Shown: one piece after another, positions 4,058-54,561 of the stretch | Numbering within the stretch: position 1 is the stretch's first letter | Layout of the letters: each line of letters opens with the position of its first letter | Assembly: GCF_964204645.1 (NCBI RefSeq) | Contig: NC_134031.1 | Location: forward strand, 11,596,088-11,660,087 | DNA length: 64,000 nt | Source: Tubulanus polymorphus | Taxonomy: Eukaryota > Animalia > Nemertea | Direction of reading: 5' to 3' | Notes under the pieces: generated by a model | What the model saw: only the letters and a program-made list of their open reading frames with translations | What the model was told of the DNA's origin: nothing | Databases searched by the model: none | Position numbers and translations under genes: made by a program

Positions 4058-4756
4058 ATGGAAGCAAATAAGAAGTACTACTGTCCAACATGTAAAATCA
4101 ATATAGATAAATCCCAAAAAGCAAGAAACAATAAAACTAGAACACATTTAGAAAATAAATTAAAGTTAAAATATAAAGATGATATATTAGAAACTAAATT
4201 AGATGAATTAAAGAATGAAAAAGAAACATACAAATGTGATACATGTAATCAATCATTCAGTGATAAAAGATATTATAAAGAACATTTAAAATCTAAAAGT
4301 CATATTAGAAATATGAATAATGATATTTTAGGTGAAGATTATTTTGAAAATGACAATGATAAGAAACAGCAGACAATAAAAAGAATAAAAAATAAATTAA
4401 ACAATAAAAGACCATACTTTGAAGATGTAAGAAGTTATATTAATTCATTAGATAATAAAAAAGAAATAGAGATAACCGAAACATTTAAAAGTGATATTGG
4501 TCCAGCAGGTATCGAGTTTAAATTTCATAAAGGTAAAACATTAGAAGAAAATAAAAAACATTTAGAAAATATGAAAAATATTATAAAAATAATTACAGAT
4601 GTTGAATACCCTAAAATTAGCATATCAGTTAAAGTAAAGTTTATAAAATCTGAAAATAAACCAATATATAATATAAATTCCCATTCACATCATATTATTT
4701 CAAAACAACATAAAGATGAAAAATTAGATAAATGTAATAATTCTTTTACTAAATAA
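4058..4756 (+). pseudogene. C2H2 zinc-finger protein, probably the truncated N-terminus of the viral pPolB
   Basis: Two C2H2-like fingers (CPTC...H; CDTC...HLKSKSH). The segment KISISVKVKFIK...INSHSHHII resembles the Polinton PolB N-terminal region. The ORF ends at a junction with sequence that normally precedes the MASAV gene (compare 34956-34976). Confidence 0.55.
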
Positions 4757-5176
4757 ATGGCTTCAGCAGTTATAACTATAATAGGGTCAGCAATAGTTAA
4801 CGCTTTAAGATTTACTGGTGGTGGTTATTTATTTAAGCATATTGATAAAAATGGATCATTATCAGAACAAAAAGGCATAACTTAGCATTAGAAAAACAAA
4901 GCAGCAGAAGAATATAGAGAAAAGAGACAAAACTATATGGATTACATCAATAAAGAATTATATGATCAGAAGATTTCTCATAGAGATTTTCAATCAGTTG
5001 ATGATGCAATGAGTTTATATAACGCGGTAACCAATAAAGAAAAATTACATCTATACGAACCTAAATTATCAGATTATTATACCCCCCCAAGTAAAGAACA
5101 ACAGAAATATGAAATAATATGGATTTTAGGCGGAACTGTTATTGTTATATTTGTAGCATATAAATCTACTAATTAA
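4757..5176 (+). pseudogene. Small conserved Polinton-like virus protein (MASAV..., hydrophobic N-terminus, C-terminal TM), frameshifted
   Basis: MASAVITIIGSAIVNALRFTGGGYLF, then a 1-nt frameshift at about 4873 (EQKRHNLALEK), continuing into ORF 4937-5176. Confidence 0.7.
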
Positions 5177-5200
5177 TTATATATTATTTTCGCTAAATAA

Positions 5201-5662
5201 ATGGATGATAAAATTGATAATATTGATATTATTCCTCATGATATAAATAAAACTAAATTAAAAATATACTTAGAAAAACAAATATTAGAATTTGAAAGTG
5301 ACTTAAAGATAAAAAAGAAAAAATATTTAAAAAGTGAAATTATATATTATTTTATTATTAGTAGTTCAGTTACAATAAGTTCTGTAATAACATTTCTAGC
5401 TATATTCAGTCCATTAACTCCTTTAGCTATCTCAATTGGGGTGCTAGGGTTTTGTTCAAGTGTTTTAACTGGTATAAGTTCAAAATTAAATATAAAAAGA
5501 AATAAAGAAAAAATTGAATCTAATAAAAAAGAAACGAATAAATTAAAATATACATTAGATTATATAATAAATTTAAATGGTAATATAACAGTTGACGAAC
5601 AAGATAAATTATTAAAAGAATTAATAAATTATTATTTTTTTAATTATATAAATGGTAGATAG
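5201..5662 (+). CDS. Viral two-transmembrane / coiled-coil protein of unknown function
   Basis: Intact 153-aa ORF with two adjacent hydrophobic helices and a TAAATG start. Confidence 0.7.
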   Translation: MDDKIDNIDIIPHDINKTKLKIYLEKQILEFESDLKIKKKKYLKSEIIYYFIISSSVTISSVITFLAIFSPLTPLAISIGVLGFCSSVLTGISSKLNIKRNKEKIESNKKETNKLKYTLDYIINLNGNITVDEQDKLLKELINYYFFNYINGR

Positions 5663-6870: not shown

Positions 6871-6888
6871 ATATTTTTTATTATATAA

Positions 6889-8409
6889 ATGGAAGAAGAT
6901 ATTCCAATGGATACTTTTGGTGACCCCCGGTATAAGTGATGAACCACAACCTGAATTTAATGAAACTAATATTGATAATAATGATGGATCAGCAAATAAT
7001 ACTAATTTAGGTGAAGATGATGATTATGATGGAATTAATGCCGAAGTACGTGAAAAATTAAATAAATATTTAGAAGCTCCTAAAAGTGTTAGAATTACAA
7101 CTATAACAGAAAGAAAAGAATTAATGAATCTACTAGAAAAACAACAAGAAGAATATCCTGATAAACCCATGGAATTATATAAAATGAAAACTAGAGTAAC
7201 AGATACAATTGTTAACGAATTATTACCAAAAGATGTAATAGATAAAGTTGATTCAGAAGAAATTGTAATGCAAATTTTAAAAGATGACCCATTTTTCATG
7301 AATAATTTAGAATTTAAAAATGATTCATGATATTATAATCTTGAATTAAATAGGAAAACTGTAACAATTCAATTATCTAGAATGGGACAAGAAAATATGT
7401 GTGAACCTGGAATGCGAGCAAGATCTACAATTGGACGTTCAAAAGGTGGTTTAGAATTTCTCAGAATTATATGGAATGTACTCAATAGAATAAATGAAAA
7501 AAAACCAATTCCGAATATTGATATTAACAATTATTCACCATTTAAAAATCCAAATCCAATGCAGATCGATTAGATAGATAAAGATCTTCAACACCAGAAA
7601 CATCGAGAAGAGATATTCAACAAATTGATAATTATTCAAGTCAATTACCATTAGTATTAGAAAAACAAATTGATAGATTAAGTGATACAGAAGAACTGAT
7701 GAATAGTATGTTAGATACATCTGGTACTGAAACTGGAATAAATCGAATACAATCTTTACTAGAAAAAGGATTACTTGATTTAACTGATGATGAATTAAAA
7801 GCATTTCCTGAACAAGCACGTAGAGAAATTAAGGGTATGCAAGAATCAGCTGGTGAAATTGCTAATATTATGATAAGATTTTCTAAAATAACTATGTTAG
7901 AAAAAGAATTAACTAATGCAAATGAAGAATTAAAACAATTAGAATTAAATAAAAATCCTCAAGTAATTGATGAAGTTGATAATGAATGCAGAAAGTTAGC
8001 TTTAGAAAAAGAAATAGATGATTTAAAATATAACAAAGAATTTCAGGAAAAAGAAAGAGATATATTATTGAAATCATATGATCTTAATCATATTAAAAAA
8101 TTGAAAGTTATCTTTAAAGATTTAATAATAAAACCAAATTCTGAAATATCATTAAAAAATAGAATAAAATTATTATTTAAGTTTGAAGGTATAACAATTC
8201 TTTCAATTCTAACAGCTGTAACTATGGTATTCACAACAATAGGTTTAGCAATATCAAATTCATTGAAATCTACACCTACTCCCAATAAACCGGATAAACC
8301 ACCAAATGATAATAATTCTATACAAGATAAAGTTAAGGATGGTTTAAAAAAATTAGCAAAATATTTATGGGAACTATCTAAAAATCTTCTGCAGCTTTAC
8401 CTATTATAA
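6889..8409 (+). pseudogene. Broken copy of the 524-aa coiled-coil/membrane viral gene
   Basis: Starts MEEDIP at 6889 and its fragments align to 31918-33492. It is truncated at about 8402, where it joins the zinc-finger gene; the MCP gene is deleted. Confidence 0.85.
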
Positions 8410-9170: not shown

Positions 9171-9183
9171 GAATAATTATTTT

Positions 9184-9485
9184 AAAACTATTTATATATC
9201 TATATACTAGACGTACGTAAGAATCTTGGTAAGAATCCAAGAATCCAAGAATCAAAGAAATCCTACTTTATTACTCGTACGTCTAGTACATAGATATATA
9301 AATTAGTTTTCATAAAAAAAATAAAAAACATAAATTATTTATCTTAGTATAGAAATAGTTATAATATAATCTATTTTTATTTTTTATTAAGAGAAAACAT
9401 ATAATTTATGCATAGATATAAAAAAACAGTTTCAGAATAATTATTCTAAATATAAATTATAAATTATATATATATATACAGGGGT

Positions 9486-9581
<96 letters not shown>

Positions 9582-9785
9582 ACCCCTGTATAAAGATAAA
9601 TTATAAACATAAATTATAAAGATAGTTTTAATATATAATTTATTCATTATTATATATTTCATTTAATAATTTATATATCTATGTACTAGTACGAGTAAGA
9701 ATCCAAGAATTCTTACTTTCTTACTTGCTTGGCAAGATGCTTGGTTTCTTACTCGTACGTCTAGTACATAGATGTATAAATAGTT
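9184..9785. repeat. Two long hairpins plus a (TA)n tract between convergent viral gene arms
   Basis: Inverted arms tatatatctatRtactag(acg)tacg / cgtacgtctagtacatagatRtataaa at 9184-9310 and about 9669-9781; (TA)n at about 9490-9577. Confidence 0.9.
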
Positions 9786-9805
9786 TCTATAATATTTTTT
9801 AAATT

Positions 9806-10430
9806 TTATCTTAAAAATTTATATTCATAGGGAAATTCTAGTCTCAGAAATAATTTTGAACCTTTATTATTCTTTAATTTATTCATATATTCATCATGTA
9901 ATTCAATTTGGTTAGCTAAGGTATAATTTGATTTTCTTCCAATGATTGTTGCATAGATTTTCTATCTTTGTTATAAAATAAAACTAAAAATCTCATATTC
10001 TCCCTAAAATCTTTAACAACTGAATTATACTTTTGATTTAAAACCCATGTTGTTATCCCAAAATGTCTCCCAGAGAAAGCTAGATAGCATAACTCACTTT
10101 CTCTCACTTTTGAATCATGTAAATTTGCACAATCATCTATAATGAATAATGTATTTGAACCTTTATAAATATCAATTGCTATTTTAATACAATTATCTAA
10201 ATTTTCTTTTACTGTTTTAGGATCTAATGTAATAACCTTTTTTATCTTAACTATGTCCCTATTATATGTTTTATTCATTTCATAAGTGGGACAGAATAAT
10301 ATTATATTATCAAAATGATTCTTATAAATAGTTTCTAACAAATCTAATATGAAATGTGTTTTACCACAGTTGGTTACCCCAGTAACTAACATATTGTGCA
10401 GTTCAAATATAAATAGATCATATTATTCAT
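9806..10430 (-). pseudogene. A32/FtsK-like DNA packaging ATPase with premature stop
   Basis: Walker A GVTNCGKT, Walker B LFIIDD and a GRH motif; stop at 9916. Confidence 0.85.
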
Positions 10431-11485: not shown

Positions 11486-11491
11486 CTTATT

Positions 11492-11851
11492 TTAATCCAT
11501 TAATAATAATTTAGATTTAGTTTCAATGATTTTTTCATTTGACTTATTTTCTGGTATAATAGGTTTATCATCGGAATCATTTTTGTTATTAAATTTAGAT
11601 TTATATATTACACCGGAGAATATAATTACTGTGATTAAACCAAAAGTAATATATAATTCATTATTACTTCAAGCATTAGAAGAATTAGATGGAATATCAT
11701 TCGAATCAATATCAGATAATTTCTGTGATTCATTTATATCAGTTAATTTCTTTTTCTTAGCTCTTTTTAACTCAGAAGATCTTTTTCCTAACTCCCTTGC
11801 CCATTTGATTTGTTTCTCAGATCTACGCTCCTTCTTAACATCATCACTCAT
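11492..11851 (-). pseudogene. Small basic/TM viral protein (MSDDV...), broken
   Basis: Homolog of 28374-28772. Confidence 0.8.
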
Positions 11852-11861
11852 TTATTTTAGT

Positions 11862-12419
11862 TTATTTTTGTTCTGATTCGATATTATCTGATTTACTTTT
11901 GTCTTTATATTCTATAGGTTTAATGTTAGAAAATGTTATAATTCCAGTAGAAATCAATGTCATTATTCCACCTAATTGAAATGAAGCGTATCCAACCCAT
12001 TTTTGTAATTCAGTCATAACTAAGTAGTCATTTTTTAAATCAACATATAATTTATTTTCATCATCAATTGGTATAATCCGTTTACATAATTTTGAATAAC
12101 ATTTGACAATACCATCAGAAATAGAATAATTTTTTCTAGCTAATCTTGACTCTTCATAAATCTTAAAATATTTTATTACTTTATCTGGTTTCATAGAGTC
12201 TATTTCTTGGAAACTTAAAATTTTCCCCAAGAAATCCTTAGATTTCCCTCCGGCAATTAGTAATTCAAGATGGTGCTTACAATATAGGTAGTATTCATAA
12301 TCAATATTACAATCAGTATTATTTTCCATTTTGGTTGGAATATCTTTATTATCACTAATGCCCAAATCATCTAAGTTTTTTTAAATATCAATACTATTCT
12401 TATTAGATTTCTTTGACAT
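11862..12419 (-). pseudogene. Viral hypothetical protein with C-terminal TM (MSKKS...)
   Basis: Homolog of 27781-28381; 5' frameshift, 167-aa ORF remains. Confidence 0.8.
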
Positions 12420-12665
12420 TTATATTAGAGAAAAAAGCGAAAAAAATATTATAAGTATTATAGAATGATACTAGTATCTCTTTAGGTTAATACTAAATTG
12501 ACTAGGTTAGTAAAAGTTAAAGAATTGTTATTCAAACCTATTCAAAATCTATTTAATCTAGTGTTAAAAAGAATTGCAAAAGAAAATATTAAATATTAAA
12601 ATAGAAATAATGGCTAGTTAAAGATGTGTCATTTTTATTAAATTTTATTTGAATTATATTATTCT

Positions 12666-13664
12666 TTAACCGCTAAATAAAGATTCAATATATTGTTCAT
12701 TATTTGAATCATTATTCCATTGATCAATAAATTTCTTTGCCTTTGTTAACTGTTCTAAATATAACTGTAAATCTAGTTTGTCATGTTTACTCATATTTTC
12801 CTTCTTTTCAATAGGTCTTAAATTCTTCCAATTCCAAATTTATTTCTTGTTGTATTCATCATTCATGCCAAATTTAGAAATAGGCAACACATGATCAAAA
12901 TGCAAATTATTGCCATAATTATTTTTATTCATTTTATCATCGAATTGATATATAATCCATGATTTAAGAAATTTATCTGAACAATCCAATAAATGTGCTA
13001 GTGCAACTGAATGGTTTTCTTTACTGAATAATTTTGATACTTCAGATCTCAAACATTTTTTCATTTTAAAATTAAAATCTGTTCGACATCTTTCTTTATG
13101 ATAATTATTAATATGTTCTCGATTATCCTTTGCCCATTCTCTCATATATTCTGTTATATAATCTGGATGATTTTCTCTCCATTGTTTATTATAAGCTTTG
13201 AATTTTTCAATGTTATCCATACAATATTCTGTTGAATAATCTGGATTATTTTTATGAACTTTTTTACAATTTTGTTTATTACAAGTTTTGCAATAATAAC
13301 TTTTACCATCTTTAGAATTTTTATCTTTATTAAATTCTGCTAATGATTCATTCAATTCACATTTTGAACATGTCTTCTGATATATATTAACAACACCATT
13401 ATTGTTTATATTTCTAATATGACTTTTAGATTTTAAATGTTCTGTATAATATCTTTTATCACTGAATGATTGATTACATATATCACATTTGTATGTTTCT
13501 TTTTCATTCTTTAATTCATCTAATTTAGTTTCTAATATATCATCTTTATATTTGAACTTTAATTTATTTTCTAAATGTGTTCTAGTTTTATTGTGTCTTG
13601 CTTTTTGGGATTTATCTATATTGATTTTACATGTTGGAGAGTAGTACTTCTTATTTGCTTCCAT
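12666..13664 (-). pseudogene. In-frame fusion of the zinc-finger (PolB N-terminal) gene to the HNH endonuclease
   Basis: About the first 86 aa match 4058-4320 and the rest matches HNH 26864-27532 (CSKC...CKTC, HFDHVLP). The frame breaks at 12840. Confidence 0.8.
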
Positions 13665-13796
13665 TTTAATATCAAGTTTTTTATTAAAATTGATTTTAGA
13701 AGTTATTCATTTATATGTTATTCACATATATGAATATTTTAAGAGTAATAGGGATAATAGGGGTTCAGGTTAAAGGTTGAAGGGGCGAGTGAGTAA

Positions 13797-14077
13797 AAAT
13801 CTACACCAAGTCCCAATAAACCGGATAAACCCCCAAATGATAATAATTCAATACAAGGTAAATTTAAAGATGGTTTGAAGAAATTAGCAAAATATTTATG
13901 AGAACTATCTAAAAAATCTGCTGCAGCTTTACCCGGATTTATTGCATCAATTGTTGGTTTTATATTAAAATCTGCAGGAAGTATTATTAACTTTGCTTTT
14001 GAACATATTATTTTATTTTTAATAACAGTTGTAAGTGCTATTATTTTTGGGTTAGTGAATATGATAAAAAATAAATA
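13797..14077 (+). pseudogene. C-terminal fragment of the 524-aa membrane gene
   Basis: PNKPDKPP...SAAALPGFIASIVGFILKSAG, with one internal TGA. Confidence 0.8.
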
Positions 14078-14098
14078 ATTAATTTTTTTGTTAAATAA

Positions 14099-15305
14099 AT
14101 GAGTGGGAGTTACATAAATCCTTCTAAGAATTCAAGAATATCTAATGCTATTAAAGCAGAGAGATCACATCATATAATTACTCATAATCCTTCTAATATT
14201 GATCCTGATGAAACTTTATATGTTAGAATTCCTCGATTAACACAAAATACTTTTTATGTTCCAAATAGTATTTATTTATCAGCTGATATAAAAGTAACTG
14301 GTCATGATAATAATTATGTTGTAGATAATGTTGGGAGATATTTGATTGAAAAATTAACTATAAAGATTGGTCCGGAAACAGTTTTCTAATTAGATGATTA
14401 TAATTTATTTATGCATTACAAAGATTCATGGTTAACAAAAGAAAATAATATGATATTTCAAGGCATCCAATCAGAAAATCAAAATAAATTAAGATCTGAA
14501 GCTAATAATGCAGTAGTAACTAATGCTACAGATAATTTGATAAAAAGGATTTATGGAAGCAAATATAAAATTCCATTAGACTTTGAATTGATAAATAATA
14601 ATGCGCCTTTATATAAATACGCAGTTCAAGAAGATATTATATTCGAAATAACATTTGCTCCTGTTAATGAAGTAGTATTATCAAGTGTAATAAAAGATAT
14701 GGGTTATAAATGATCGAATATATGTTTAGAATATGATACAGTAACTGATGAAAATATTGCTAGCACAATTCAAACTCAATATGATCAAGGATTTTCATTA
14801 TTATATGATTATATTGATAAATTTAAAATTGTAACTATTAATGCAAGTGATGAAATAATTAATGAGAATATCAACTTCCCAAGAAGATCTATTAAAGGTA
14901 TATTAATATTTTTTACCATTGCTACGTATTCAAATGGCACAATACAGGTTGATAATTATTGAAGGTATAGCAAATAAAATATTTTGTCAATGAATGAGAA
15001 TGATTGATCAATGGCCAGAAATTAAAAAACATTTTATGAATGAAAGGGTAAAATCATCTGAAAATTGTAATATTAATCAAATTGATTATTATACCGGCAA
15101 TAAATATGCATTATGGTTAGATTTTAGAACAACCGAGGATAATTTATTACATGGTTCTGGTAGAAAACTACAGAACACTAAAGATGGAATACAATTATTC
15201 ATGACAAAGAAAAAAGGAAGCTTAAATTTCAAAATGGATATTTATATTATATCTGACGCGCAATTAAATATCATAAATTCTCACTTGAATAGTGTCATGT
15301 ATTAA
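14099..15305 (+). pseudogene. Probable major capsid protein (adintovirus hexon-like), broken
   Basis: About 410 aa when the fragments are joined. Motifs ITHNPSNIDPDETLYVRIPRL, NICLEYDTVT and YALWLDFRT..D..LHGSGR are recognised as the Polinton/adintovirus MCP type. Confidence 0.7.
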
Positions 15306-15337
15306 AATTTTAGTTTTAATAAAAAATTCTATAATAA

Positions 15338-16423
15338 ATGGAAGGAGGAATATATGAAATACAAATTCCAAGTGAAATGATATCAGATATATATTAAATA
15401 ATACCTTATGATGAATAAAGTAAGTATTTTGGAGAATACTTTAATCAATTCAAATATAGAATAAGTAAAATATAAAAGAATATTGAACCTAAAAAAGAAG
15501 ATAATATTGAATCTAAAATAGAAGATAAGAATATTGAAACTAAAATAGAAGATAATGTTATACCTTCTACATCGAATAATGATAAGATTGAACCTGATAT
15601 CAAAACCAAAAAGACAAATGAAAAATATTGTGACGTATGTAAGAAATATATATCATATAAAAATTGGGCATCACATAAGAAATCAAAGAAACATGTAGAA
15701 AAAGAAAAGAACAATAATATCATAGATAATGTTAATACAATTGAAACTAATGATACCATAGATAATATAACAGATAATGTTGATACAATCGAAACTTATG
15801 ATAATGAAACAATTGATGATTCTAAAAACATTGTAATGTTTCTAATTTAGATATTTCTAAAAGTAATTTTTCTAAGCATAAAAAATCTCAGGGACATATA
15901 GAAAATGAAAGGGAGGTAGAAGAACATGAAAAGAAACTAGAAGAAATAGAAAGAAATAAAACCGGTCCATATTGTAATAAGAAATTTGAACCTGTTGATG
16001 AAAATACTCATTATAAATCAAAATTACATCTAATTAATGTTCATAAAAATGTGAGTATGATACCATTGTTAAATAACCAAATGAAATATATCAAATATTT
16101 TGATCCTAAAACTAAACGATATTATATATTCTATGTTGTTATTTGATAAATTATTAGCTTATGCAGAAGATAATCCTAAACAAATATATAAATTATTATA
16201 TTCGAGAAAAATAGATTTAAGTTATCTAACAAAAAATTTTGGATATCATTTTGATTTCTATTTTGATGAATACTTTGAAAAATTAAGAGAAGAAGGTAAG
16301 ATACATACTAATTATCGTAATCTGATGGTTCAACTAAAATTAATAAATATACCTAAGCATTATTATGAATTAGATATAAACAAAGATGATTTTATAAACT
16401 TACTAGAAACAAAATTAGAATAA
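15338..16423 (+). pseudogene. Viral multi-C2H2 zinc-finger gene, frameshifted
   Basis: Starts MEGG; contains CDVCKKYISYKNWASHKKSKKH and two further degenerate fingers. Confidence 0.75.
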
Positions 16424-16425
16424 TT

Positions 16426-16530
16426 AATATATCTATGTACTAGACGTATGTAAGAATCCAAGAAAGAAAGAATCCAAGAATTCTTACTTTCTTACTCGTA
16501 CCTCTAGTACTTAGATATATAAATTAGTTT
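16426..16530. repeat. Viral hairpin repeat unit
   Basis: Same arm sequence as 9184-9310, directly after the zinc-finger gene stop. Confidence 0.85.
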
Positions 16531-16672
16531 TTATAAAAATTAAAAATGTAAATTATTAATCTAAGTATAGAAATAATTATAATATAATCTATTTTTTATT
16601 TCTATTAAGTGAAAACATATAATTATCTCACATAATATATTTTTAATTATTACAAATCTATTTATTTATATA

Positions 16673-19951
<3,279 letters not shown>

Positions 19952-20550
19952 TATGTACCAGACGTACGAGTAAGAAAGTAAGGATCCAAGAATCCAAGAA
20001 TTCTTACTTTCTTACTCGTACGTCTAGTACATACATATATAAATTAGTTTTTATAAAAATTAGAAATATAAATTATTAATTGAAGTATAGAAATGGTTAT
20101 ATTATAATCTATTTTTATTTTTATTAGGAGAAAACATATAATTTATTCATTTTTATATATTTCATTTTATAATTTAAATTTGTAATTATCATAAACTGTT
20201 TATATATCTATGTACTAGACGTACGTAAGAATCTTGGTAAGAATTCTTACGTACGTCTAGTACATAGATATATAAATAGTTTTAGAATAATTATCCTAAA
20301 TATAAATTATATATATATATATTTATACCCCTGTGCAAACTTGAATTATAAACATAGTTTTAATATATAATTTATTCATTATTATATATTTCATTTAATA
20401 ATTTATATTTATAATTTTTATAGAATAAGGTATTTATATATCTATGAACGAGAGGTACGAGTAAGAAACCAAGAATTCTTACTTTCTTACGTTCTTGGCA
20501 AGAATCTTGGTTTCTTACTCGTACGTCTAGTACTTAGATATATAAATAGT
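19952..20550. repeat. Three viral hairpin repeat units
   Basis: Hairpins at about 19952-20050, 20199-20276 (perfect 34-bp arms, 10-nt loop) and about 20431-20550. Confidence 0.9.
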
Positions 20551-20612
20551 TATTTTAAAAAAAGGGAGGTTTTAAATATTAAGGTATCTAATACGTAAAT
20601 GTTTAAAATACC

Positions 20613-22177: not shown

Positions 22178-22183
22178 CTTATT

Positions 22184-22550
22184 TTAATCCATTAATAATA
22201 ATCTTGGATCATTTTCAATGACTTTATCAATTGACTTATTCTCTGGTATAATAGGTTTATCATTATCATCATTATTGTTAATAAATTTGAATTTAGATTT
22301 ATATATTACACCAGAGAATATGATTACTGTGATTAACCCAATTTTGATATATAAGTAATTATTTCTTCCAGTATTAGAAGAATTAGATGGATGATCATTC
22401 GAATTAATAACAGATAATTTCTGTGACTCATTGATAACAGTTAATTTTCTTTTTCTTTGCTCTTTTTAATTCTGCAGATCTTTTACCTAATTCCCTTGCC
22501 CATTTAATTTGTTTCTCAGATCTAGGCTTCTTCTTAATATCATCACTCAT
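22184..22550 (-). pseudogene. Small basic/TM viral protein copy
   Basis: Homolog of 28374-28772. Confidence 0.75.
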
Positions 22551-23097
22551 TTATTTTAGTTAATTTTTGTTCTGATTCGATATCTTCTGATTTATTTTTA
22601 TCTTTATATTCTATCGGTTTGATATTAGAAAATGTTATAACTCCAGTAGAAATCAATGTCATTATTCCGCCTAATTAAAATTAAGCGTATCCAACCCATT
22701 TCTGTAATTCTGTCATAACTAAATAATCATTTTTTAAATCGCTATACAATTTATTTTCATCATCAATTGGTATAATCCGGTTACATAATCTAGAGTAACA
22801 TTTAACTATTCCATCACTGATAGAGTCATTTATTCTAGCTAATCTTCTTCATATATTTTGAAATGTTTGATTACTTTTTATGGTTTCATATTATCTAATT
22901 CTTGAAATGTTTTTGCCAATAAACTCTTTAGATTTGCCACCAGCAATCAATAGTTCTTGATGATGCTTACACGTCAAATAGTATTCATAATCAATATTAT
23001 TTTCCATTTTGGTTGGAATATCCTTATTATCACTAATGCCCAAATCATCTAAGGTTTTTTCCATATCAATACTATTCTTATTAGATTTCTTTGACAT
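22543..23097 (-). pseudogene. MSKKS hypothetical viral gene, broken
   Basis: Homolog of 27781-28381. Confidence 0.75.
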
Positions 23098-23367
23098 TTA
23101 TATTAGAGAAAAAAGCGAAAAAAAATATTATACTTATTCTTCAAATGATACTAATAACTCATTAGGTTAATACTAGTAAGTAATAGGGAATATCTTGTTT
23201 CAGATCAAAGGTCGAACGGTCGAGCTCATTAAAAAACAAAACATTAAAAGTAATTTAAAACTGTAATATATTTTCATAACCGTGTGCATTTTATATTAAA
23301 ACTAAATATTTATTCTAAGATATCAATAATTTAAAAAGCATATTGTATTAAATCAATTGGTCGCTCC

Positions 23368-23535
23368 ACTGAAGAAATAGAAAAGGTTAGTTTGAACCCA
23401 TTTGATGATAAAAGATATATTTTAGATGATGGAATTCATACAGTCGCGTATGGTTGCAATTTAGAAGAATACTTAAAATTTAAAAGAGAAGAAGAGAAAG
23501 AAAAGGAAATAATGAACAGGATTATTACATGTTAA
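23368..23535 (+). pseudogene. Extreme C-terminal remnant of protein-primed family B DNA polymerase
   Basis: Not in the ORF track. Translates as TEEIEKVSLNPFDDKRYILDDGIHTVAYGC..., the characteristic Polinton pPolB terminal motif (K.xLxPFDDKRY...GI.T..YG). Confidence 0.8.
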
Positions 23536-23564
23536 TCAAATTTTATTAAAAATATGTATCATAA

Positions 23565-24331
23565 ATGGAAAGTACACAATCACAAACTATCAATATTACA
23601 AATAGTGTTGTAAATATTTATCATAAGAAATGTTCAAAATGTGAATTGAATAAACAATCATCAGAATATTACAAAGATAAAACCCAGAAAGATGGTAAGC
23701 AACGTTATTGTAGAACTTGAGTTAAAGAAATGAATAAGCAATAACGAGCAAATAATCCAGATTATCAAAAGGAATGGCGAAATGATAACCCAGAATATTT
23801 AAGAGATTGGAAAAAAGATAATAGAGAACATTATAATGAGTATCAAAATAATTACCAAAAAGAAAGATATAAAACGGATCTTAATTTTAAATTGAAACAA
23901 TGTTTAAGTTCTAGATTAACAAAATTATTCAGTAAAGAACGCATTCAGCCGCACTATCTAATTTATTGGGGTGTTCAGATGAATTTCTCAAATAATGGAT
24001 AATATATCAATTCGACGATAAAATGAATGAAAAAAACTATGGTGAATACTTTCATATTGATCATGTGTTACCAATATCTAAATTTAACATGAATGATGAA
24101 TACAATTTGAAGTTAATATGGAGCTGGAAAAACTTAAGACCTTTAGAAAAAGTTGAAAATATTAGGAAAGGTAACAAACTAGAAATGAAATTATATTTAG
24201 ATCAACTGGATAAAGCAAAGACATTTGTTGAATTATGGAACTCAATACATAATGAAAAATACGTTGAATATAAACGTATAGAAAACCGGAAACTCTCGAT
24301 GTATGTCAAACTGCCTATGCAATTTTACTAA
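23565..24331 (+). pseudogene. HNH endonuclease, broken
   Basis: MESTQ...CSKC..., internal stops, then HIDHVLPISKF...WKNLRPLEKVEN. Confidence 0.8.
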
Positions 24332-25483: not shown

Positions 25484-25735
25484 ATGGAAGCAAATAAGTA
25501 CTACTGCCCAACATGTAATTTCAATATAGATAAATCCCAAAAAGCAACACACAATAAAACTAAAACACATTTAGAGAATAAATTGAAATTAGAATATTTA
25601 CAGTTATATTCAGAACAGTTAACAAAGGCAAAGAAATTTATTGAATTATGGAATAATGATCCAAATAATGAACAATACGTTGAGGAATTCGATATCAAGG
25701 ATCCGATGTTTATACTAGAACATGATTCTATTTGA
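25484..25735 (+). pseudogene. Second in-frame zinc-finger::HNH-tail deletion fusion
   Basis: MEANKYYCPTC...HLENKLKL joined to LQLYSEQLTKAKKFIELWNNDPNNEQYVE. Confidence 0.75.
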
Positions 25736-26389: not shown

Positions 26390-26710
26390 GGTCGTTTCTA
26401 TTCAGAATGAATATATAATTAGGATTAGCGCATGCGCATTAAGCAAAACCGGCCATAAATGGCCGCATGTGACTGACACATGTAACGCATGTGACGCAGA
26501 CATGAACGCGTTTGAATTTCCTATGTTCAGTTGTTTCTATTTTACAGAATGAATATATAATTATGATTAGCGCATGCGTATTAAGCAAAAGCGGACATCA
26601 ATGGCCGCATGTGACGCATGTAACGCATGTGTTGTTTCTATTTTACAGAATTTATAGAATGAATATATAATTATGATTAACGCATGCGCATTGATCCAAA
26701 CCGGGCCTGA
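26390..26710. repeat. Three imperfect tandem units (about 110-140 bp) containing GCGCATGCGC-like palindromes
   Basis: agaatgaatatataattaKgattaRcgcatgcgYatt at about 26404, 26546 and 26656. Confidence 0.85.
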
Positions 26711-26863
26711 ATGCGCGGTTTTGCCCAGTGGTATTATTTAGATATCGAGGAATCGAAAAAACTTATCAAAAGCAGCGAGGAATGAAAAAGGATGACGTTG
26801 GTCGAAGAAATGGAAGAGGATTCTAAAATATTAACCAATTTAGTAAAAAAATACGTATAATAA

Positions 26864-27532
26864 ATGGAACCAGAACAACCACAAACTATCAATATTACAA
26901 ATAACACTGGTGTTATAAATATATATTACAAGAAGTGTTCTAAATGTGAATTAGATAAAGTAGCTTTAACGGAATTTAGTAAACGTAAGATTAGCAAAGA
27001 TGGTTTTCAATATTGCTGTAAAACTTGTTTTAAACTATATACCAAACAATACCGAGAAGATAATATAGAACATTATAATTATTATATGGCAGAATATATG
27101 AGAGAAAGATATCAAACAGATCTTAATTTTAGATTAAAACAATCCTTTAGATCTAGATTAACACAATTATTCAACAAAGAAACACATTCAGAAACACTAT
27201 CTAATCTATTGGGTTGTTCAGATGAATTTCTCAAATCATGGATTATATTTCAATTCGATGATAAAATGAATATAGATAATTATGGGGATTATTACCATAT
27301 TGATCACGTGTTACCAATATCTAAATTTAACATGAATGATGAATACAATAAAAAACTTATTTGGGGTTGGAAGAATTTAAGACCTTTAGAAAAGAAAGAA
27401 AATCAAATCAAATCTAATAAACTAGATTTACAGTTATATTTGGATCAATTAGATAAAGCAAAGAAATTCATTGAATTATGGAACAATGATCCAAATAATG
27501 AACAATATGTTGAGTCTTTAATGAGTGGTTGA
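26864..27532 (+). CDS. HNH-type endonuclease with N-terminal Zn ribbon (large-DNA-virus type)
   Basis: Intact 222 aa with CSKC...CKTC and YHIDHVLPISKF...WKNLRPLEKKENQIKSNK. Confidence 0.8.
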   Translation: MEPEQPQTINITNNTGVINIYYKKCSKCELDKVALTEFSKRKISKDGFQYCCKTCFKLYTKQYREDNIEHYNYYMAEYMRERYQTDLNFRLKQSFRSRLTQLFNKETHSETLSNLLGCSDEFLKSWIIFQFDDKMNIDNYGDYYHIDHVLPISKFNMNDEYNKKLIWGWKNLRPLEKKENQIKSNKLDLQLYLDQLDKAKKFIELWNNDPNNEQYVESLMSG

Positions 27533-27780
27533 AGAATAATAGATTTTAAATAAAAAATATTAAAAAAACAATAACTTCAACTAGCTAGTGAATTCTATTA
27601 TATTTTTAATATTTTCTTTTCAAAAAAAGAATACTTTATATCACAAATAAAAAATACTAAAAAAACAATAACTAATACTAAAATTCTTTACTTTTAACTA
27701 AGCTAGTATTAATCTAAAGAGATACTGGTATCATTTTATAATACTTATAATATTTTTCTTATTAAATTTCTCTAATATAA

Positions 27781-28381
27781 ATGTCAAAGAAATCGAGTAA
27801 GAATAGTATTGATATTGAAAAGACATTAGATGATTTGGGCATTAGTGATAATAAGGATATTCCGGCCAAAATTGAAAATAATATTCAAGTTAATTGTAAT
27901 ATAGATTATGAATACTATTTATATTGTAAACACCATCTTGAACTATTGATTGCTAGCGGGAAGTGTAAACAATTTTTAACTAAGACTATTACTTTTCAAG
28001 AATTAGATGCTATGAAACCCGATAAAGTAATAAAATATTTATGAAGAAGCTAGATTAGCTAGAATAAACGACTCTATAAGTGATGGTATTGTCAAATGTT
28101 ATTCAAAATTATGTAACCAGTTAATACCAATTAATGATGAAAATAAATTATATAGTGATTTAAAAAATGATTACTTAGTTATGACTGAATTACAAAAATG
28201 GGTTGGTTATGCTTCATTTCAATTAGGATCCGTTATGACATTAATTTCTACTGGTGTCATAACATTTTCGAACATCAAGCCTATGGAATATAAATCAGGT
28301 AAGAACGAAACAGATGTACTAAAACCAAACGGTGAAACAGAAAATGAATCAGAGCAAAAATTAACTATAATAAATGAGTGA
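27781..28381 (+). pseudogene. MSKKS hypothetical viral gene with a small frameshifting deletion
   Basis: ORFs 27781-28044 and 28181-28381 align to 11862-12365. Confidence 0.8.
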
Positions 28382-28772
28382 TAGCGTTAAGAAAAAGGCT
28401 AGATCCGAGAAACAAATTAAATGGGCAAGAGAATTAGGTAAAAGATCTTCAGAATTAAAAAAAGCTAAGAAAAAGAAATTAACTGATATAAATGAATCAC
28501 AGAAATTATCTGATATTGATTCAAATAATACTCCATCTGATTCTTCTAATGCTGGAAGTAATAATTACTTATATATTACAATTGGATTAGTAACAGTTAT
28601 TATATTATCTGGTGTAATATATAAATATAAGTATGAATCTGATGATAAAGATGATGCCAATGATGATCGGAAACTTAGTTATCCGTGTACAGACAATAAA
28701 CCTATCATACCAGAAAATAAGTCAAATCATAAAACCATTGAAACTAAATCTAAATTATTATTAATGGATTAA
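28374..28772 (+). CDS. Small viral protein with basic N-terminus and single TM
   Basis: Intact 132 aa; KKKARSEKQIKWARELGKRS and LYITIGLVTVIILSGVIY. Confidence 0.75.
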   Translation: MSDSVKKKARSEKQIKWARELGKRSSELKKAKKKKLTDINESQKLSDIDSNNTPSDSSNAGSNNYLYITIGLVTVIILSGVIYKYKYESDDKDDANDDRKLSYPCTDNKPIIPENKSNHKTIETKSKLLLMD

Positions 28773-28778
28773 AATAAG

Positions 28779-29882
28779 ATGGAAAAAGAACAATATTTAA
28801 GAGATTTATATTACAACCCAGAGAGTGAAGTATCATATTCTAACGTTTCAGAATTATGGGATAAAATTAAATCTGATAAAGAAAATGGTAATATAAAATA
28901 TAGTGAATTAAAATCATGGTTACAAAATCAACCAACATATCAAATCCACAAGAAAATGGATAAAAGTTATTTAACAAGAAAAGTTATGGTTTCATATATT
29001 GATCAACAATGGCAAGCAGATTTAATTGACGTGAAGAACTTAGAAGAATACAACAAAGGATATTTCTGGATATTAAATGTTATAGATATATTCAGTAGAT
29101 ACGCATGGTCAATTCCAATCAAAAATAAAACTGGAATAGAAGTGACAAATGCTTTTAAATTTATATTTAAAGAAGCTATTCCAGATAAGATACAATTTGA
29201 TGAAGGTAAGGAATTTTATAACAAACATTTAAAAAAACTATTATCTGATAACGATGTAGATTATTTTTCAACACATTCAGATAAAAAAGCATCTATTATA
29301 GAAAGATTTAATAAAACATTGAAAACTAGAATGTGGAAATATTTTACTGCTAATGAAACATATAAATATATCGATGAGTCTATAAATACATTAGATGATT
29401 TAGTGAAAGGTTATGATAATTCTAAACATAGTTCTATAAATATGAAACCTATACAAGCTAGAAAAGAAGATAATTCGGAAATAGTTTGGAATAATTTATA
29501 TGGAGCATTTGTTACACATGATTTTGGAGAACCTAAATTCAAAATTGGACAACATGTAAGAATATCTAAATATAGAAAAACATTTTATAAAGGTTATACC
29601 CCAAATTTTACAGAAGAAATATTTAAAATTAAAAAGATAATATTAACTAAACCATTTGTTTATAAATTAGAAGATATAAAAGATGAAGAAATATTAGGTT
29701 ATTTCTATGAACAAGAATTATCACTTGTACCAAATCCAGATGAAATAGAATACAAAATAGAAAAAGTATTGAAAACAAAAACTCTTAAAGGAAAAAAGTA
29801 TTGTTTGGTGAAATATAAAGGGTATGATGATAAATTTAATGAATGGATTTTATCTAGTAAAATTAAAAGAATAAATGAATAA
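28779..29882 (+). CDS. Polinton-type retroviral-like (rve) integrase with C-terminal chromodomain
   Basis: Intact 367 aa. DDE motifs WQADL / QFDEGKEF / IIERFNKTLK; chromodomain YKIEKVLK...LVKYKGYDDKFNEWI. Confidence 0.93.
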   Translation: MEKEQYLRDLYYNPESEVSYSNVSELWDKIKSDKENGNIKYSELKSWLQNQPTYQIHKKMDKSYLTRKVMVSYIDQQWQADLIDVKNLEEYNKGYFWILNVIDIFSRYAWSIPIKNKTGIEVTNAFKFIFKEAIPDKIQFDEGKEFYNKHLKKLLSDNDVDYFSTHSDKKASIIERFNKTLKTRMWKYFTANETYKYIDESINTLDDLVKGYDNSKHSSINMKPIQARKEDNSEIVWNNLYGAFVTHDFGEPKFKIGQHVRISKYRKTFYKGYTPNFTEEIFKIKKIILTKPFVYKLEDIKDEEILGYFYEQELSLVPNPDEIEYKIEKVLKTKTLKGKKYCLVKYKGYDDKFNEWILSSKIKRINE

Positions 29883-30485
29883 AGATTTATTTATATTTGA
29901 ACCGCATAATATGTTAATAACTGGGGTACCAACTGTGGTAAAACACATTTCATATTAGACTTGTTAGAAACTATCTATAAGAATCATTTTGATTATATAA
30001 TATTATTTTGTCCTACTTATGAAATGAATATAACATATAATAGAGATATAGTTAAGATGAAAAAGTTTATTATATTAGATCCTAAAATAGTAAAAGAAAA
30101 TTTAGATAATTGTATAAAAATAGCAATTGATACTTATAAAGGATCAAATACGTTATTCATTGTAGATGATTGCGCAAATTTACATGATTCAAAAGTTAGA
30201 GAAAGTGAGTTATGTTATTTCGCTTTCTCTGGAAGACATTTCGGGATAACAACATGGGTTTTAAATCAAAAATATAATTAAATTGTTAAAGACTTTAGAG
30301 AAAACATTAGATTTCTAGTTTTATTCTACAATAAAGATAGAAAATCTATGCAACAATCATTGGAAGAAAATCAAATTATACCTACTGAATTACATGATGA
30401 ATATATGAATAAATTAAAGAATAATAAAGGTTCAAAATTATTACTGAGATTACAATTTCCATATGGATATAAATTTATAAAATAA
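29875..30485 (+). pseudogene. Packaging ATPase with frameshift in Walker A and stop at 30279
   Basis: ggggtaccaactgtggt here versus ggggtaaccaactgtggt in the 10.4-kb copy; LFIVDD and GRH motifs. Confidence 0.85.
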
Positions 30486-30654
30486 CTATTTATATATCTA
30501 TGTATTAGATACCCTATTAGATACCCTAATACCTGATACCCTATTAGATACCCTAATACCTGATACCTGATTTCATGTGTATCGATGTATGGAATATGTT
30601 TATATACTTTACCTCCTTCCATTTATTATATAAATTTTTATTAAAGTTAAAATT

Positions 30655-31897
30655 TTAATACATAACACTATTTAATTCAGAATTTACAATATTTAATTGC
30701 GCGTCAGATATAATATAAATGTGCATTTTGAAATTTAGACTTCCTTTTTTCTTTGTCATGAATAATTTTATTCCATCTTTAGTGTTTTGTAATATTTTCC
30801 AGAACCATGTAATGAATTATCCTCTGTTGTTCTAAAATCTAACCATAATGCATATTTATTACCGGTATAATAATCAATTTGATTAATATTACAATCTTCA
30901 GATGATTTTATTTTTTCATTCATAAAATGTTTTCTAATTTCTGGCCATTGATCAATCATTCTCATTCCTTGACAAAATATTTTATTTGCTATTCCTTCGA
31001 TAGTTATTTCTACGTTTGTTATTTCAGGATTATAATATTATCAACCTGTATTGCACCATTAGAATATGTTGCAATGGTAAAAAATATTAATATACCTTTA
31101 ATAGATCTTCTTGGGAAGTTAATATTCTCATTAATTATTTCATCATTTGCATTAATAGTTACAGTTTTAAATTTATCAATATAATCATATAATAATGAAA
31201 ATCCTTGATTGTATTTAGTTTGAATTATACTTGAAATATTTTCATCAGTTACTGTATCATATTCTAAACATATATTCGATAATTTATAACTCATATCTTT
31301 AACAACGCTAGATAATACAATTTCAATTACAGGAGCAAATGTTATCTCGAATATAACGTCTTCTTGAATTGCGTATTTATATAAAGGTGCATTGTTATTT
31401 ATCAATTCAAAGTCTAATGGAGTTTTATATTTGCTTCCATAAATCTTTTTTATCAAATTATCTACAGCATTAGTTACTACTGCATTATTGGCTTCTGATC
31501 TTAATTTATTTTGGTTTTCTGATTGGATTCCTTGAAATATCATATTTCTATTTTCTTTAGTTAATCATAAATCTTTATAATGCATAAATAAATTATAATC
31601 ATCTAATGAGAAAACTGTTTCTGGACCAATCTTTATAGTTAATTTTTTAATCAAATATCTTCCAACATTATCAACAACATGATTATTATTATTACCGGTT
31701 ACTTTTATATCGGCAGATAAATAAATACTATTTGGAACATAAAAAGTATTTTGTGTTAATCTCGGGATTCTAACATATAAAGTTTCATCGGGATTAATAT
31801 TTGAAGGATTATGTGTAATTATATGATGTGATCTTTCTGCTTTAATAGCATTAGATATTCTATGATTCTTAGAAGGATTGATATAACTCCCACTCAT
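30655..31897 (-). pseudogene. Probable major capsid protein, broken
   Basis: ORFs 31565-31897, 31019-31543 and 30768-30965 are homologous to 14099-15305. Confidence 0.7.
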
Positions 31898-31917
31898 TTA
31901 TTTAACAAAAAAATTAA

Positions 31918-33492
31918 TTATTTATTTTTGATCATGTTTACTAAACCAAAAATAATAGCACTTACAACTGTAATTAAAAATAAAATAATATGTTCAGCAG
32001 CAAAGTTAATAATGTTTCCTGCAGATTTCAATATAAAACCAACAATTGATGCGATAACTCCAGGCAATGCTGCAGCAGATTTCTTTGATAGTTCCCATAA
32101 ATATTTTGCTAATTTCTTTAAACCATCTTTAACTTTATCTTGTATTGAATTATTATCTGGGGGTTTATCTGGTTTTTTAGGAGTAGGAGTAGATTTTAAT
32201 GAATTTGATATAGCTAAACCAATTGTTGTAAATAACATAGTTACAGCTGTTAGAATTGAAAGAATTGTTATTCCTTCTAACTTAAATAATAATCTTATTC
32301 TATCTTTCAATGATAGTTTAGAATCTGATTTTATTATTAAATCTTTAAAAATAACTTTTAATTTTTTAATATGATTAAGATCATATGATTTTAATAATAT
32401 ATCTCTTTCTTCTTTTTGTAATTTTATGTTATATTCTAAATCATCTATTTCTTTTTCTAAAGCTAACTTTCTGCTTGCATAATCAGGTTCATCTCTATTT
32501 AATTCTAATTGTTCTAATTTTTCATTTGCAATAGCTAATTCTTTTTCTAACATGGCTATTTTAGAAAATCTCATATTAATATTAGCATTTACATCAGCTG
32601 ATTCTTGAATACCTTTAATTTCTCTACGTGTTTGTTCGGGAAATGCTTCTAATTCTTCATCAGTTAATTTAAGAAGTCCTTTTTCTAGTAAAGATTGTAT
32701 TCGATTTATTCCATTTTCAGCACCGGGTGTATCTAAAACACTATTCATCTCTTCTTCAAATGAATGAATTGTATCTAACATGCTATCAAAATGTTTTACT
32801 AATTGTAATTGACTTGAATCATTATCAATTTGTTGAGTGTCTCTTCTCGATGTTTCTGGTGTTGAAGATCTTAATCTATCTAATTGATCTCTATTCTCTT
32901 CCATTTCTGGATCAAAATCAGTAGGATTTAAATTTGGATTTTTAAATGGTGAATATTTGTTTATATCAATTTTAGGAATTGGTTTTTCTTTATTTATTCT
33001 ATCGAGTGCATTCCATATAATTCTGAGAAATTCTGTGCCACCTTTTGAATGTTCAATTGTAGATCTTGCTAACATTACAGGTTCATAGATATTTTCTTGA
33101 CCCATTCTAGATAATTGAATTGATACATTTTTGTTATTTAATTCAACATTATAATACCATGCATCATTTTTAAATTCTAAATTATTCATGAAAAATGGGT
33201 CATCTTTTAAAATTTGTTCTACAACACCTTCTGAACCAATTTCATCTATTACATCTTTTGGCAATATTTCGTTTACAACTACACCTGTTATTTTAATTTT
33301 AATTTCATTTAAATTTTCACGTAATTCGGAATTAATTACATCATAATCATCATCTTCACCTAAATTAGTATTATATGCTGATTCATTACCATCATTAAAA
33401 CTTGTTTCACTAAAATCAGGTTGTTGTTCATCAGTTATACCGGGGGTGTCATCAAAAGGATCCAATGGAATATCTTCTCCACCTTCTGCCAT
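31918..33492 (-). CDS. 524-aa viral acidic/coiled-coil protein with C-terminal hydrophobic and amphipathic helices
   Basis: Intact ORF upstream of the MCP gene; GITILSILTAVTMLFTTIGLAI and ALPGVIASIVGFILKSAGNIINFAAEHIILFLI. Confidence 0.8.
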   Translation of the reverse strand: MAEGGEDIPLDPFDDTPGITDEQQPDFSETSFNDGNESAYNTNLGEDDDYDVINSELRENLNEIKIKITGVVVNEILPKDVIDEIGSEGVVEQILKDDPFFMNNLEFKNDAWYYNVELNNKNVSIQLSRMGQENIYEPVMLARSTIEHSKGGTEFLRIIWNALDRINKEKPIPKIDINKYSPFKNPNLNPTDFDPEMEENRDQLDRLRSSTPETSRRDTQQIDNDSSQLQLVKHFDSMLDTIHSFEEEMNSVLDTPGAENGINRIQSLLEKGLLKLTDEELEAFPEQTRREIKGIQESADVNANINMRFSKIAMLEKELAIANEKLEQLELNRDEPDYASRKLALEKEIDDLEYNIKLQKEERDILLKSYDLNHIKKLKVIFKDLIIKSDSKLSLKDRIRLLFKLEGITILSILTAVTMLFTTIGLAISNSLKSTPTPKKPDKPPDNNSIQDKVKDGLKKLAKYLWELSKKSAAALPGVIASIVGFILKSAGNIINFAAEHIILFLITVVSAIIFGLVNMIKNK

Positions 33493-33509
33493 TTACATTA
33501 TAAAAAAAA

Positions 33510-34935
33510 TTAAAATTTAAAATATAATATTCCTCCGATTACAATTCCTATACAAGTTATAGCTAATTTAGCATTTTCATGGGATTTATTATCATCATTT
33601 AGTTTAATTATATCATGTTGAATAATATCAGTTCTAATATTTTCTGATGTATTGTAATCTTTTATTTTAGAATCATTATTTAATTTAATATTATTAGTTT
33701 TAGTTTCAGTTGATTGAATATGTTTTTTATTTTTTTCACCTTCCATTAATTTTGGAGCAGTAATAATCTTTTTATTTATATCATTCAATCCAAATGAATT
33801 ATTTATTGTTGCAGTTTTAATTAGATTGTTATAACCAATTATATTTCCCATCTTTAATACTAAATCATTGGAAATAATAAATAGATTAGGGCCTATACAA
33901 TAATTTAATCTAATATGTGATTTATCTAAATAATTTTGATATCTTGCAATGTTTTCCGGAATCGATCTATTTTTATCATTATGAATGGAATCTTCAAATA
34001 ATACTTTGAATTGTTTTTGTGTATCAAATGATGTATTCAAATTTCCAATTATTGGGGATCTTGTTTCAACTTGTGCACCTAAAATACATATCAAATAAGT
34101 TCTAATAGATTGATTTATTGTATTCCATGCTTTGTATTCTGAATTCTTTGTATTCCAGCTTTAGTAAAACCTTCACTATTTTCTAAAATGTAATTAACCC
34201 AAACATCATTATTTTGTTGTTGTTTGATATAAATATAATATTTTGGTATTTCATTCCATTTAAACGTTTTTGAGTTTGTATTTTTTATTTCTTTTCTATA
34301 TTCTTTAGTATAAGGGACATAAAAACCTCCGATTGGAAATGATGAATTATTCATTGCATCCATAGCTTTCTCTACTTTAGATAAATCTCCCCCTGTAATT
34401 GTTCCCATCTTTGATCTAAAATCAGAATTATTTATATCTATATCAAATTCATTACATATTTTATAATACTTTGATAAATTAACGTTATTATCTAATTCTT
34501 TAAAATATCTAGACCCTGGTAAAGGACACTCTAATTCATTTAATATTAATCTTATTTGAAAGTATGTATGCAATCTAAAGAGTGATAATATTAATGGTAA
34601 ACTTGGTTTATTTAAATGATCATTCCAACATATGCCGCACCCTGTTGTTGCGCAATAAAAGCAAAATTTAATTGGTTTTGCCAGAATTGCATATTTGATT
34701 TTAACATCCATAATTTTGCTTTACTTAATTCTTTTTCAAAATTAATTTCATAAACATTGAATATATTTTCCATCTTTACATGAAAATTATTACTTTCAGT
34801 AACATGAATATATAAATCAATTAATGAATTTAATACTTCATTTCTATATGAAATATCTTTATTAAAATCTATTGCTGGAATATTATATTTAATTGATTTA
34901 TTATATTGGAAAGCTTTTGGAAAACTATCTACCAT
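33510..34935 (-). pseudogene. Conserved viral hypothetical gene (MVDSFPK...), frameshifted, C-terminal TM
   Basis: Three consecutive ORFs homologous to 5652-6870. Confidence 0.8.
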
Positions 34936-34982
34936 ATATATAATATAGCAGAAGCCATTTATTTAGTAAAATAATTACGCAT

Positions 34983-49405: not shown

Positions 49406-49477
49406 AATTTCATTGCGTTAGTCTTCATGACTTCAACTGAAAGGAAAGAAAACAGGCCAGAGATTAGAACAACAGTC

Positions 49478-54558: not shown

Positions 54559-54561
54559 ATT

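Follow-up and report, generated by a model that had tools for sequence, protein, structure and literature searches.

We analyzed a 64,000-nt stretch of the genome of the nemertean Tubulanus polymorphus (contig NC_134031.1, positions 11,596,088 to 11,660,087; hereafter the window), in which a nest of decayed Maverick/Polinton copies occupies 3.5-35.2 kb and most gene types begin at the sequence TAAATG. The nest is composed of one element in at least four rearranged copies, which are nested, truncated, and frameshifted; its GC content is 20-30%, inserted repeats excepted. The surroundings are eukaryotic, with long terminal repeat (LTR) and DNA transposons present, and the integrase homologues that carry eukaryote names are nemertean (55%) and spider (46%) only. 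Assignment of the element to the Polinton/Maverick type with a double-jelly-roll capsid is supported, and a capsid, a packaging ATPase, an integrase, and a PolB remnant are seen in the window. The following features were recognized (ORF, open reading frame; L numbers denote related or control contigs described below):

3923..4324 (+): left inverted repeat arm of one copy, holding the zinc-finger ORF start; 96% complementary to 13398-13799
13398..13799 (-): right inverted repeat arm, partner of 3923..4324
4058..4756 (+): zinc-finger ORF, start TAAAATG; C2H2 matches below cut-off
13664 (-), 25484 (+): stubs with the zinc-finger ORF start
4754..4759 (+): TAAATG of gene A, small, hydrophobic, broken; stub paralog at 34956-34961 (-)
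5198..5203 (+): TAAATG of gene B (ORF 5201-5662), with a hydrophobic stretch
5649..5654 (+): TAAATG of gene C, broken here; paralog at 34935 (-) with TATATG
6886..6891 (+): TAAATG of gene D, broken copy
31918..33495 (-): gene D, open 524-aa copy; TAAATG 33490-33495
14096..15305 (+): major capsid protein gene, broken; TAAATG 14096-14101; first part with 71-75% identity to its nearest intact homologues
30655..31900 (-): major capsid protein gene, second broken copy; TAAATG 31895-31900
15335..15340 (+): TAAATG of gene E, broken; truncated paralog with TAAATG 30620-30625 (-)
26861..27532 (+): HNH/endonuclease VII-like gene; TAAATG 26861-26866; phrog_1035, E 6e-15
23562-23567: TAAATG start of an endonuclease VII-like paralog
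27778..27783 (+): TAAATG of gene F; paralogs 12417-12422 (-) and 23095-23100 (-)
28371..28772 (+): gene G; TAAATG 28371-28376; paralogs 11849-11854 (-) and 22548-22553 (-)
28779..29882 (+): rve-chromo integrase, intact; start TAAGATG with TAAAAT a few nt upstream; PF00665 (E 8.5e-9), PF00385
11485 (-), 22177 (-): starts of broken integrase copies
29872..30485 (+): A32-type packaging ATPase, broken; TAAATG 29872-29877; PF04665, E 8e-11
10430 (-) with TAGATG, and near 21213 (-): further ATPase copies
23368..23463 (+): C-terminal scrap of a Polinton-type PolB; tblastn with the L005 and L025 PolB queries, E 1e-8 and 1e-6
34988..35188 (-): small gene, start missing here; 82% identity to L001:1733, the L001 homologue starting at TAAATG
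9177..9770: palindromic repeat junction between converging gene arms (self-inverted matches); related junctions at 16423-16674 and 19952-20563

The two inverted arms are 402 nt long and match at 96%; no target-site duplication was seen by eye at their ends. Both capsid genes and every ATPase copy in the window are broken. Gene C is about 440 aa long in relatives and has a hydrophobic C-terminus there, and gene E was recognized from its position after the capsid gene and its N-terminal MEG start, both matched in L002 and L003. A PolB fragment in L005 matches phrog_1907 weakly (E 0.007); Pfam gave no PolB match. Polintons usually, though not universally, carry an adenain-type maturation protease; no Pfam match to one was found in the window or in L001, neither of which is a complete element.

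The broken capsid fragment retrieved 26 homologues of 343-420 aa, and the capsid of the clade described below is about 415 aa long with no Pfam match. A structural model of the intact homologue P0121 (pLDDT 70.5) matches iridovirus, PBCV-1, and virophage capsids with E values down to 7e-13; its fold is no closer to the Sputnik and mavirus capsids (9-10% identity) than to those of nucleocytoplasmic large DNA viruses. The capsid profile recovered 2418 representatives at E<=0.001. Capsid searches of GTDB and of a phage collection gave no match. IMG/VR likewise held nothing that matched the window integrase, an alignment of its close homologues, the capsid alignment, or a PolB fragment.

The start motif in the window and in related elements

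All 19 TAAATG starts cited in the first-pass annotation are present in the nest, as are the two paralogs that it described as deviating, TAGATG at 10430 (-) and TATATG at 34935 (-). These starts represent 10 gene types, and for eight of them tblastn located an intact counterpart in related contigs; the type at 15338/30622 has no N-terminal tblastn match, and the type at 4757 matches from just inside the gene. Between positions 3900 and 35200, TAA precedes 70 of 1232 ATG triplets (5.7%, or 4.2% minus the 19). Measured against this local rate, the motif is clearly enriched: 10 of the 12 window gene types begin at TAAATG, and the probability of at least 10 is 1e-12 at the background rate and 3e-7 under a generous 15% null.

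The claim that the TAA is usually not the stop codon of the upstream gene was borne out as well, a long upstream frame being closed by it at one of the 19 window starts (4757) and at three of 63 in the relatives. The window integrase does start at TAAGATG and the ORF at 4058 at TAAAATG; the latter is not confirmed as PolB, since it has no significant match to a full PolB and shares with it weak zinc-finger similarity only. The further suggestion that the integrase and PolB lack the motif as early genes fails, because in relatives the integrase (L003, L001) and the full-length PolB (L026) start at TAAATG. The integrase and zinc-finger starts of the window keep TAAA within a few bases.

An alignment of the capsid fetched 24 metagenome loci, of which 16 entered the clade count (ORFs of at least 100 aa), with the decayed capsid fragments L018 and L021-L024 excluded. 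In these 16 contigs, 56 of 65 ORFs start at TAAATG. Of the nine other starts, three lie internally in broken or cut ORFs, and another five have TAAA(T) no more than a few bases away. The capsids of the TAAATG elements form one clade in a quick phylogenetic tree (SH-aLRT 99), with L015 outside; the two capsid relatives outside the clade, L015 and L016, have the motif at none of seven starts. For comparison, 98 loci were fetched with a distant integrase alignment; counts were made on 97 of them, and L026 was scored apart. These 97 control Polinton-integrase loci have TAAATG at 31 of 964 starts, or at 4 of 318 minus one redundant source. The motif does not occur at the same frequency in other Polintons (31/964 vs 56/65); equal frequencies would have told against the first-pass proposal. 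At position -3, T is found in 49 of the 54 clade genes, and 109 of the 137 control genes have a purine there, which rejects a host-type Kozak context, T at -3 being opposite to the purine-rich control Polintons. TAAATG is confirmed as a real, lineage-wide feature, and its restriction to this clade and rarity in other Polintons are supported.

The low GC content of the element in the window (20-28%) could favor an explanation by AT-richness, or by a translational device such as stop-start coupling or an insulating in-frame stop. However, six contigs at 32-44% GC, L026 included, keep the motif at 21 of 23 starts, whereas the five low-GC control Polintons have it at 1 of 38, and the few upstream frames closed by the TAA (3/63 and 1/19) argue against coupling. 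The codon before the ATG is TAA in 56 cases, TAG in none, and TGA in one, compared with 44, 7, and 8 for true stops, so that an insulating-stop role is unlikely. Explanations of this type are largely refuted, and we regard them as extremely improbable.

Two further contigs show related start contexts. L026 (IMG/VR, 9 kb), a second Polinton, has TAAATG at seven of seven starts, those of its PolB and integrase among them. The PolB is 1253 aa long and contains an inserted endonuclease VII, and the integrase is extended at its N-terminus by about 150 aa that look protease-like by eye. The integrase tree does not settle whether L026 falls inside or outside the clade, and L026 may represent an independent gain of the motif. 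In L039, a contig resembling Polinton-like viruses (PLVs), most ORFs start at TAAAATG or similar, with TAAA directly or one base before ATG, which resembles an intermediate-type initiator.

Upstream architecture and candidate helpers

In 68 non-redundant upstream regions, T has a frequency of 0.90 at ATG-12 and A of 0.68 at position -18. T at ATG-12 accompanies 74 of 82 starts but 61 of 147 non-start TAAATG sequences in the same DNA (p=6e-14); it is the majority base in 22 of 24 gene families and is present at 17 of the 19 window starts. Vaccinia late promoters have TAAAT followed by G over the start codon and a conserved T ten nucleotides upstream, as described in PMC11980589. The TAAA is numbered -1 to +3 in the promoter scheme of PMC12917281, where it is read directly by the polymerase, and ATG-12 therefore corresponds to position -10 with the first A as +1, the published spacing of the T being ambiguous by one base. 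Two sequence features of poxvirus late promoters, the fusion of TAAAT(G) with the start codon and the conserved T some 10 nt before it, are thus found in the elements.

In divergent gene pairs, the motif is present on both strands in nine of 11 cases, seven of them with the genes 19-34 nt apart (two of the seven are near-duplicates of others). This excludes an origin from a poly(A) signal or from stop-start coupling at those sites. It also bears on the possibility that host RNA polymerase II transcribes the elements in the nucleus, the motif being a TATA-like core promoter, an upstream poly(A) signal, or a lineage-specific translation context. The element has an integrase and resides in nuclear DNA, and AATAAATG, which contains AATAAA, occurs at 29 of the 68 non-redundant starts and TATAAATG at 23, all of which would suit transcription by the host. 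Nevertheless, 16 starts have neither form, and head-to-head genes have no upstream 3' end, yet both of their strands show the motif in spacers of 19-34 nt. The TATA-like matches lie at -5 to -7 (36/44) and not about 25-30 nt before the start site, the TATA position given in PMC5294985; T at -3 reverses the purine-rich context of other Polintons; and AATAAA is not avoided inside the genes (162 vs 173). We consider host transcription rather unlikely.

Candidate upstream motifs were rejected as a general element: compared with their commonly used consensuses, the pGKL motif ATNTGA occurs in 2 of 63 upstream regions, the entomopoxvirus early motif in 1 of 63, and the baculovirus-type DTAAG in 11 of 63 (counted without a null). 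A second poxvirus-like hint, which we treat as unexplained, is the avoidance of TTTTTNT, the poxvirus early terminator, on the coding strands of the clade. In 36 non-redundant genes (L001-L020 and the intact window ORFs), 11 occurrences were counted vs 29.8 expected, a deficit reached in 0 of 300 shuffles; TTTTT-V-T is depleted (10 vs 21.8) and TTTTT-V-V is near expectation (33 vs 38). The control Polintons have 94 vs 97, and the low-GC controls 27 vs 40. The avoidance may be a clue to termination by a helper polymerase.

A search pattern derived from the divergent spacers matched 71 IMG/VR loci. The highest TAAATG fraction (8/11, two sites forced by the pattern) belongs to a poxvirus, recognized by the Pfam matches Pox_G9-A16, Pox_E10, and NPH-II, and the next best are non-poxvirus giant-virus-like contigs with 5/7, 6/15, and 4/10 (two forced in each). 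Non-poxvirus giant-virus contigs with raised TAAATG starts are G001 (comprising L212, L279, and L280), L232, and L247. The capsid of G001 is iridovirus-like, with E 5e-123 to the capsid of Singapore grouper iridovirus, and its gene has a T-run and the start TATAAAAATG. In our sample, fusion of TAAAT with the start codon is most typical of poxviruses, and the architecture is shared more widely; the signature is not exclusive to poxviruses, because iridovirus-like and other giant-virus starts look alike. Another 82 viral loci, fetched via kinase and endonuclease genes, indicate no helper because they show 28-40% identity and have TAAATG at 62 of 1167 starts.

The first-pass annotation had proposed transcription by a poxvirus or related machinery. 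The lineage-wide motif, the T at -10, and the anti-Kozak context do fit an RNA polymerase of the nucleocytovirus type; the choice of a poxvirus as helper is not settled by them, an iridovirus-like virus being similar. Helpers from these groups together are the probable explanation: a poxvirus-type virus is a plausible candidate, if short of an even case, and another nucleocytovirus, for example an iridovirus-like one, a more tentative one. We therefore propose that the elements are probably a helper-transcribed, virophage-like Polinton lineage, whose promoters would be read by the polymerase of a co-infecting cytoplasmic large DNA virus. The motif is common to the element genes and to large DNA viruses, as in virophages; the element is a member of the Polinton/Maverick group with what is probably a virophage-like promoter system, rather than a demonstrated virophage. 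A single motif on nearly all genes fits a virophage with one helper promoter class better than an autonomous cascade.

In this mechanism, the helper polymerase would initiate at the first A of TAAAT, and slippage, which creates a 5' poly(A) leader (PMC6211774), would then add a 5' poly(A) head as in vaccinia. The mRNAs would thus be without a templated leader, and a T at -3, contrary to a Kozak context, would then be accounted for. Integrated copies may be silent until helper infection; once expressed, the element would be replicated by its own PolB and packaged, in the manner of mavirus.

Several observations weigh against this proposal or against its poxvirus version. The TTTTTNT avoidance is absent from our poxvirus sample (9 vs 10.7) and is unexpected for poxvirus late genes, A-runs show a mild depletion as well (ratio about 0.8), and TTTTTNT was rejected as a 3' terminator, since it follows only 5 of 33 stop codons. 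Over 20 kb of G001, 6 of 18 ORFs begin at TAAATG (two forced), and six of eight such starts have T at -12, compared with four of eight in the poxvirus sample, and the capsid genes of three more giant-virus bins have an upstream T-run, two with TAAAT directly before ATG. No helper virus was found in this host. The control count of 31/964 takes in host flanking ORFs and the relatives in the count of 56/65 are not independent; several element genes lack annotation and the elements analyzed are incomplete; and the promoters are predictions from DNA sequence.

A polymerase encoded by the element itself, or by a sister cytoplasmic linear element like pGKL, could also account for the motif. Yeast virus-like elements do combine a poxvirus-like TAAAN initiator with their own polymerase, according to PMC6211774, and genes C, D, and E have no family match (gene C also none in the Atlas, and its structural model is poor, pLDDT 32.5). 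Yet no RNA polymerase family was detected among the 23+35+16 proteins scanned, which come from incomplete elements; genes C and D end in hydrophobic segments; the closest long contigs, of 11.5 kb (L001) and 16.9 kb, leave little room; and the pGKL motif, as counted above, is nearly missing upstream. This origin of the polymerase appears quite improbable. Deoxynucleoside kinase genes were observed in two relatives (L001:10340-10981 and L006:2895-3377), to our knowledge an unusual Polinton cargo, and together with the lack of an RNA polymerase match they fit helper transcription.

The promoters might instead be a relic of past helper dependence in a lineage that is now a nuclear transposon or extinct. 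The decay of the window copies and loss of the motif in two paralogs point in that direction, whereas unrelated genes have retained the motif in elements with capsids only 52-57% identical, many of them with intact genes. Its retention over such divergent elements implies long-lasting selection in the lineage, though not in the window copies. The relic explanation appears very improbable.

Other features, known systems, and significance

The junction palindromes of the window recur in L002:3030-3220, L003:3675-3865, and L010:3108-3290 as long hairpins of about -50 kcal/mol over 180-190 nt (computed without a shuffle control); they may serve to form 3' ends, as an origin, or as a site of resolution. 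Inside the Polinton nest lies an inverted-repeat DNA transposon (16667-19957), with related copies near 1-2600 and 44850-45840. At 48630-55337 lies an LTR retrotransposon whose gag-like and pol ORFs are open and run along the minus strand. Its LTR-like repeats of 780 nt were reported to be inverted arms with 100% complementarity, an orientation unusual for LTRs. Summed read depth over 26500-35200 relative to the flank is about 500x in run X1, 50-100x in X2 and X3, and 15-30x in X5. Such uneven depth could stem from copy-number variation or extrachromosomal amplification, or it may be artefactual; read depth suggests many element copies in the genome, the widely differing run ratios not being copy numbers.

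A close parallel is provided by the mavirus/EMALE virophages of Cafeteria, which are likewise small integrating dsDNA viruses with an rve integrase, PolB, and the helper's late promoter motif, and in which the promoter motif predicts the reactivating helper (PMC10945749). They differ in the protist host, the virophage capsid class, and the CroV motif TCTA, as described in PMC5294985, and reactivation and defence were shown there, whereas here the case is made from sequence. Sharing of a helper promoter is established for protist virophages and one PLV in the accounts of PMC10945749, 10.1101/2022.07.28.501842, and 10.1101/2025.10.09.676808, and a transpoviron likewise shares its helper's promoter (PMC11788076).

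Animal PLVs tied to poxviruses have been described from insects and are represented by the entomopoxvirus-associated AHEV_PLV1/2, CBEV_PLV1, and Ca_PLV1, which resemble our element in the A32 ATPase and a divergent double-jelly-roll capsid (PMC11296320). As far as that description allows comparison, they differ in that the link to poxviruses is co-purification in occlusion bodies, a cysteine protease is present, and an rve integrase is unreported. The main text of PMC11296320 makes no mention of promoter, motif, TAAAT, or transcription, and its supplement contains TAAATG twice, both times in repeat tables. The egoviruses of protists are described as related to poxviruses (10.1101/2024.03.23.586382).

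Vaccinia late and intermediate promoters share with the element the TAAAT(G) fused to the start codon, the T about 10 nt upstream, and an AT-rich core (PMC11980589, PMC12917281, PMC5294985). In contrast, the element has the motif on nearly every gene, some integrase and PolB genes too, and avoids TTTTTNT, unlike the sampled poxvirus genes. For iridoviruses, the promoter survey in PMC5294985 gives no TAAATG late rule. The linear pGKL1/2 elements of yeast are Polinton-related, use the TAAAN initiator, and make 5' poly(A) leaders with an RNA polymerase and a capping enzyme that they encode themselves (PMC6211774); neither enzyme was found among the proteins of our elements, which have a capsid and an integrase.

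Canonical animal Mavericks, as presented in PMC8097293, have inverted repeats, an rve-chromo integrase, PolB, an ATPase, a capsid, and mostly defective copies; the element described here resembles them, with the 402-nt inverted arms and the PolB scrap of the window. The clade differs from them in its distinct capsid, and the other loci are purine-rich at -3 with almost no TAAATG; in addition, neither the window nor L001 showed a protease gene. Virions are described as unseen for vertebrate Mavericks, dependence on large DNA viruses as helpers is a proposal, and virophage-like immunity by animal Mavericks, possibly against iridoviruses, is put forward as a hypothesis (PMC8097293). No report of a TAAATG motif in Polintons was found in the literature searched, which took in few subscription papers and no bioRxiv supplements.

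These observations bear on the transcription and activation of animal Polintons. By promoter sequence, most Polintons have ordinary start contexts and one clade stands apart with late promoters of the nucleocytovirus type; start context provides a one-line test for helper dependence that is applicable to any genome. The promoters also predict the kind of virus to seek in these hosts. A stronger version, in which a widespread lineage would consist of true integrated virophages of an undescribed poxvirus-like invertebrate virus and the copies would form an infection-triggered antiviral reservoir, is doubtful, and a role in antiviral defence is speculation; were this version true, the promoters would predict the helper, and the mavirus model of defence would be extended to animals.

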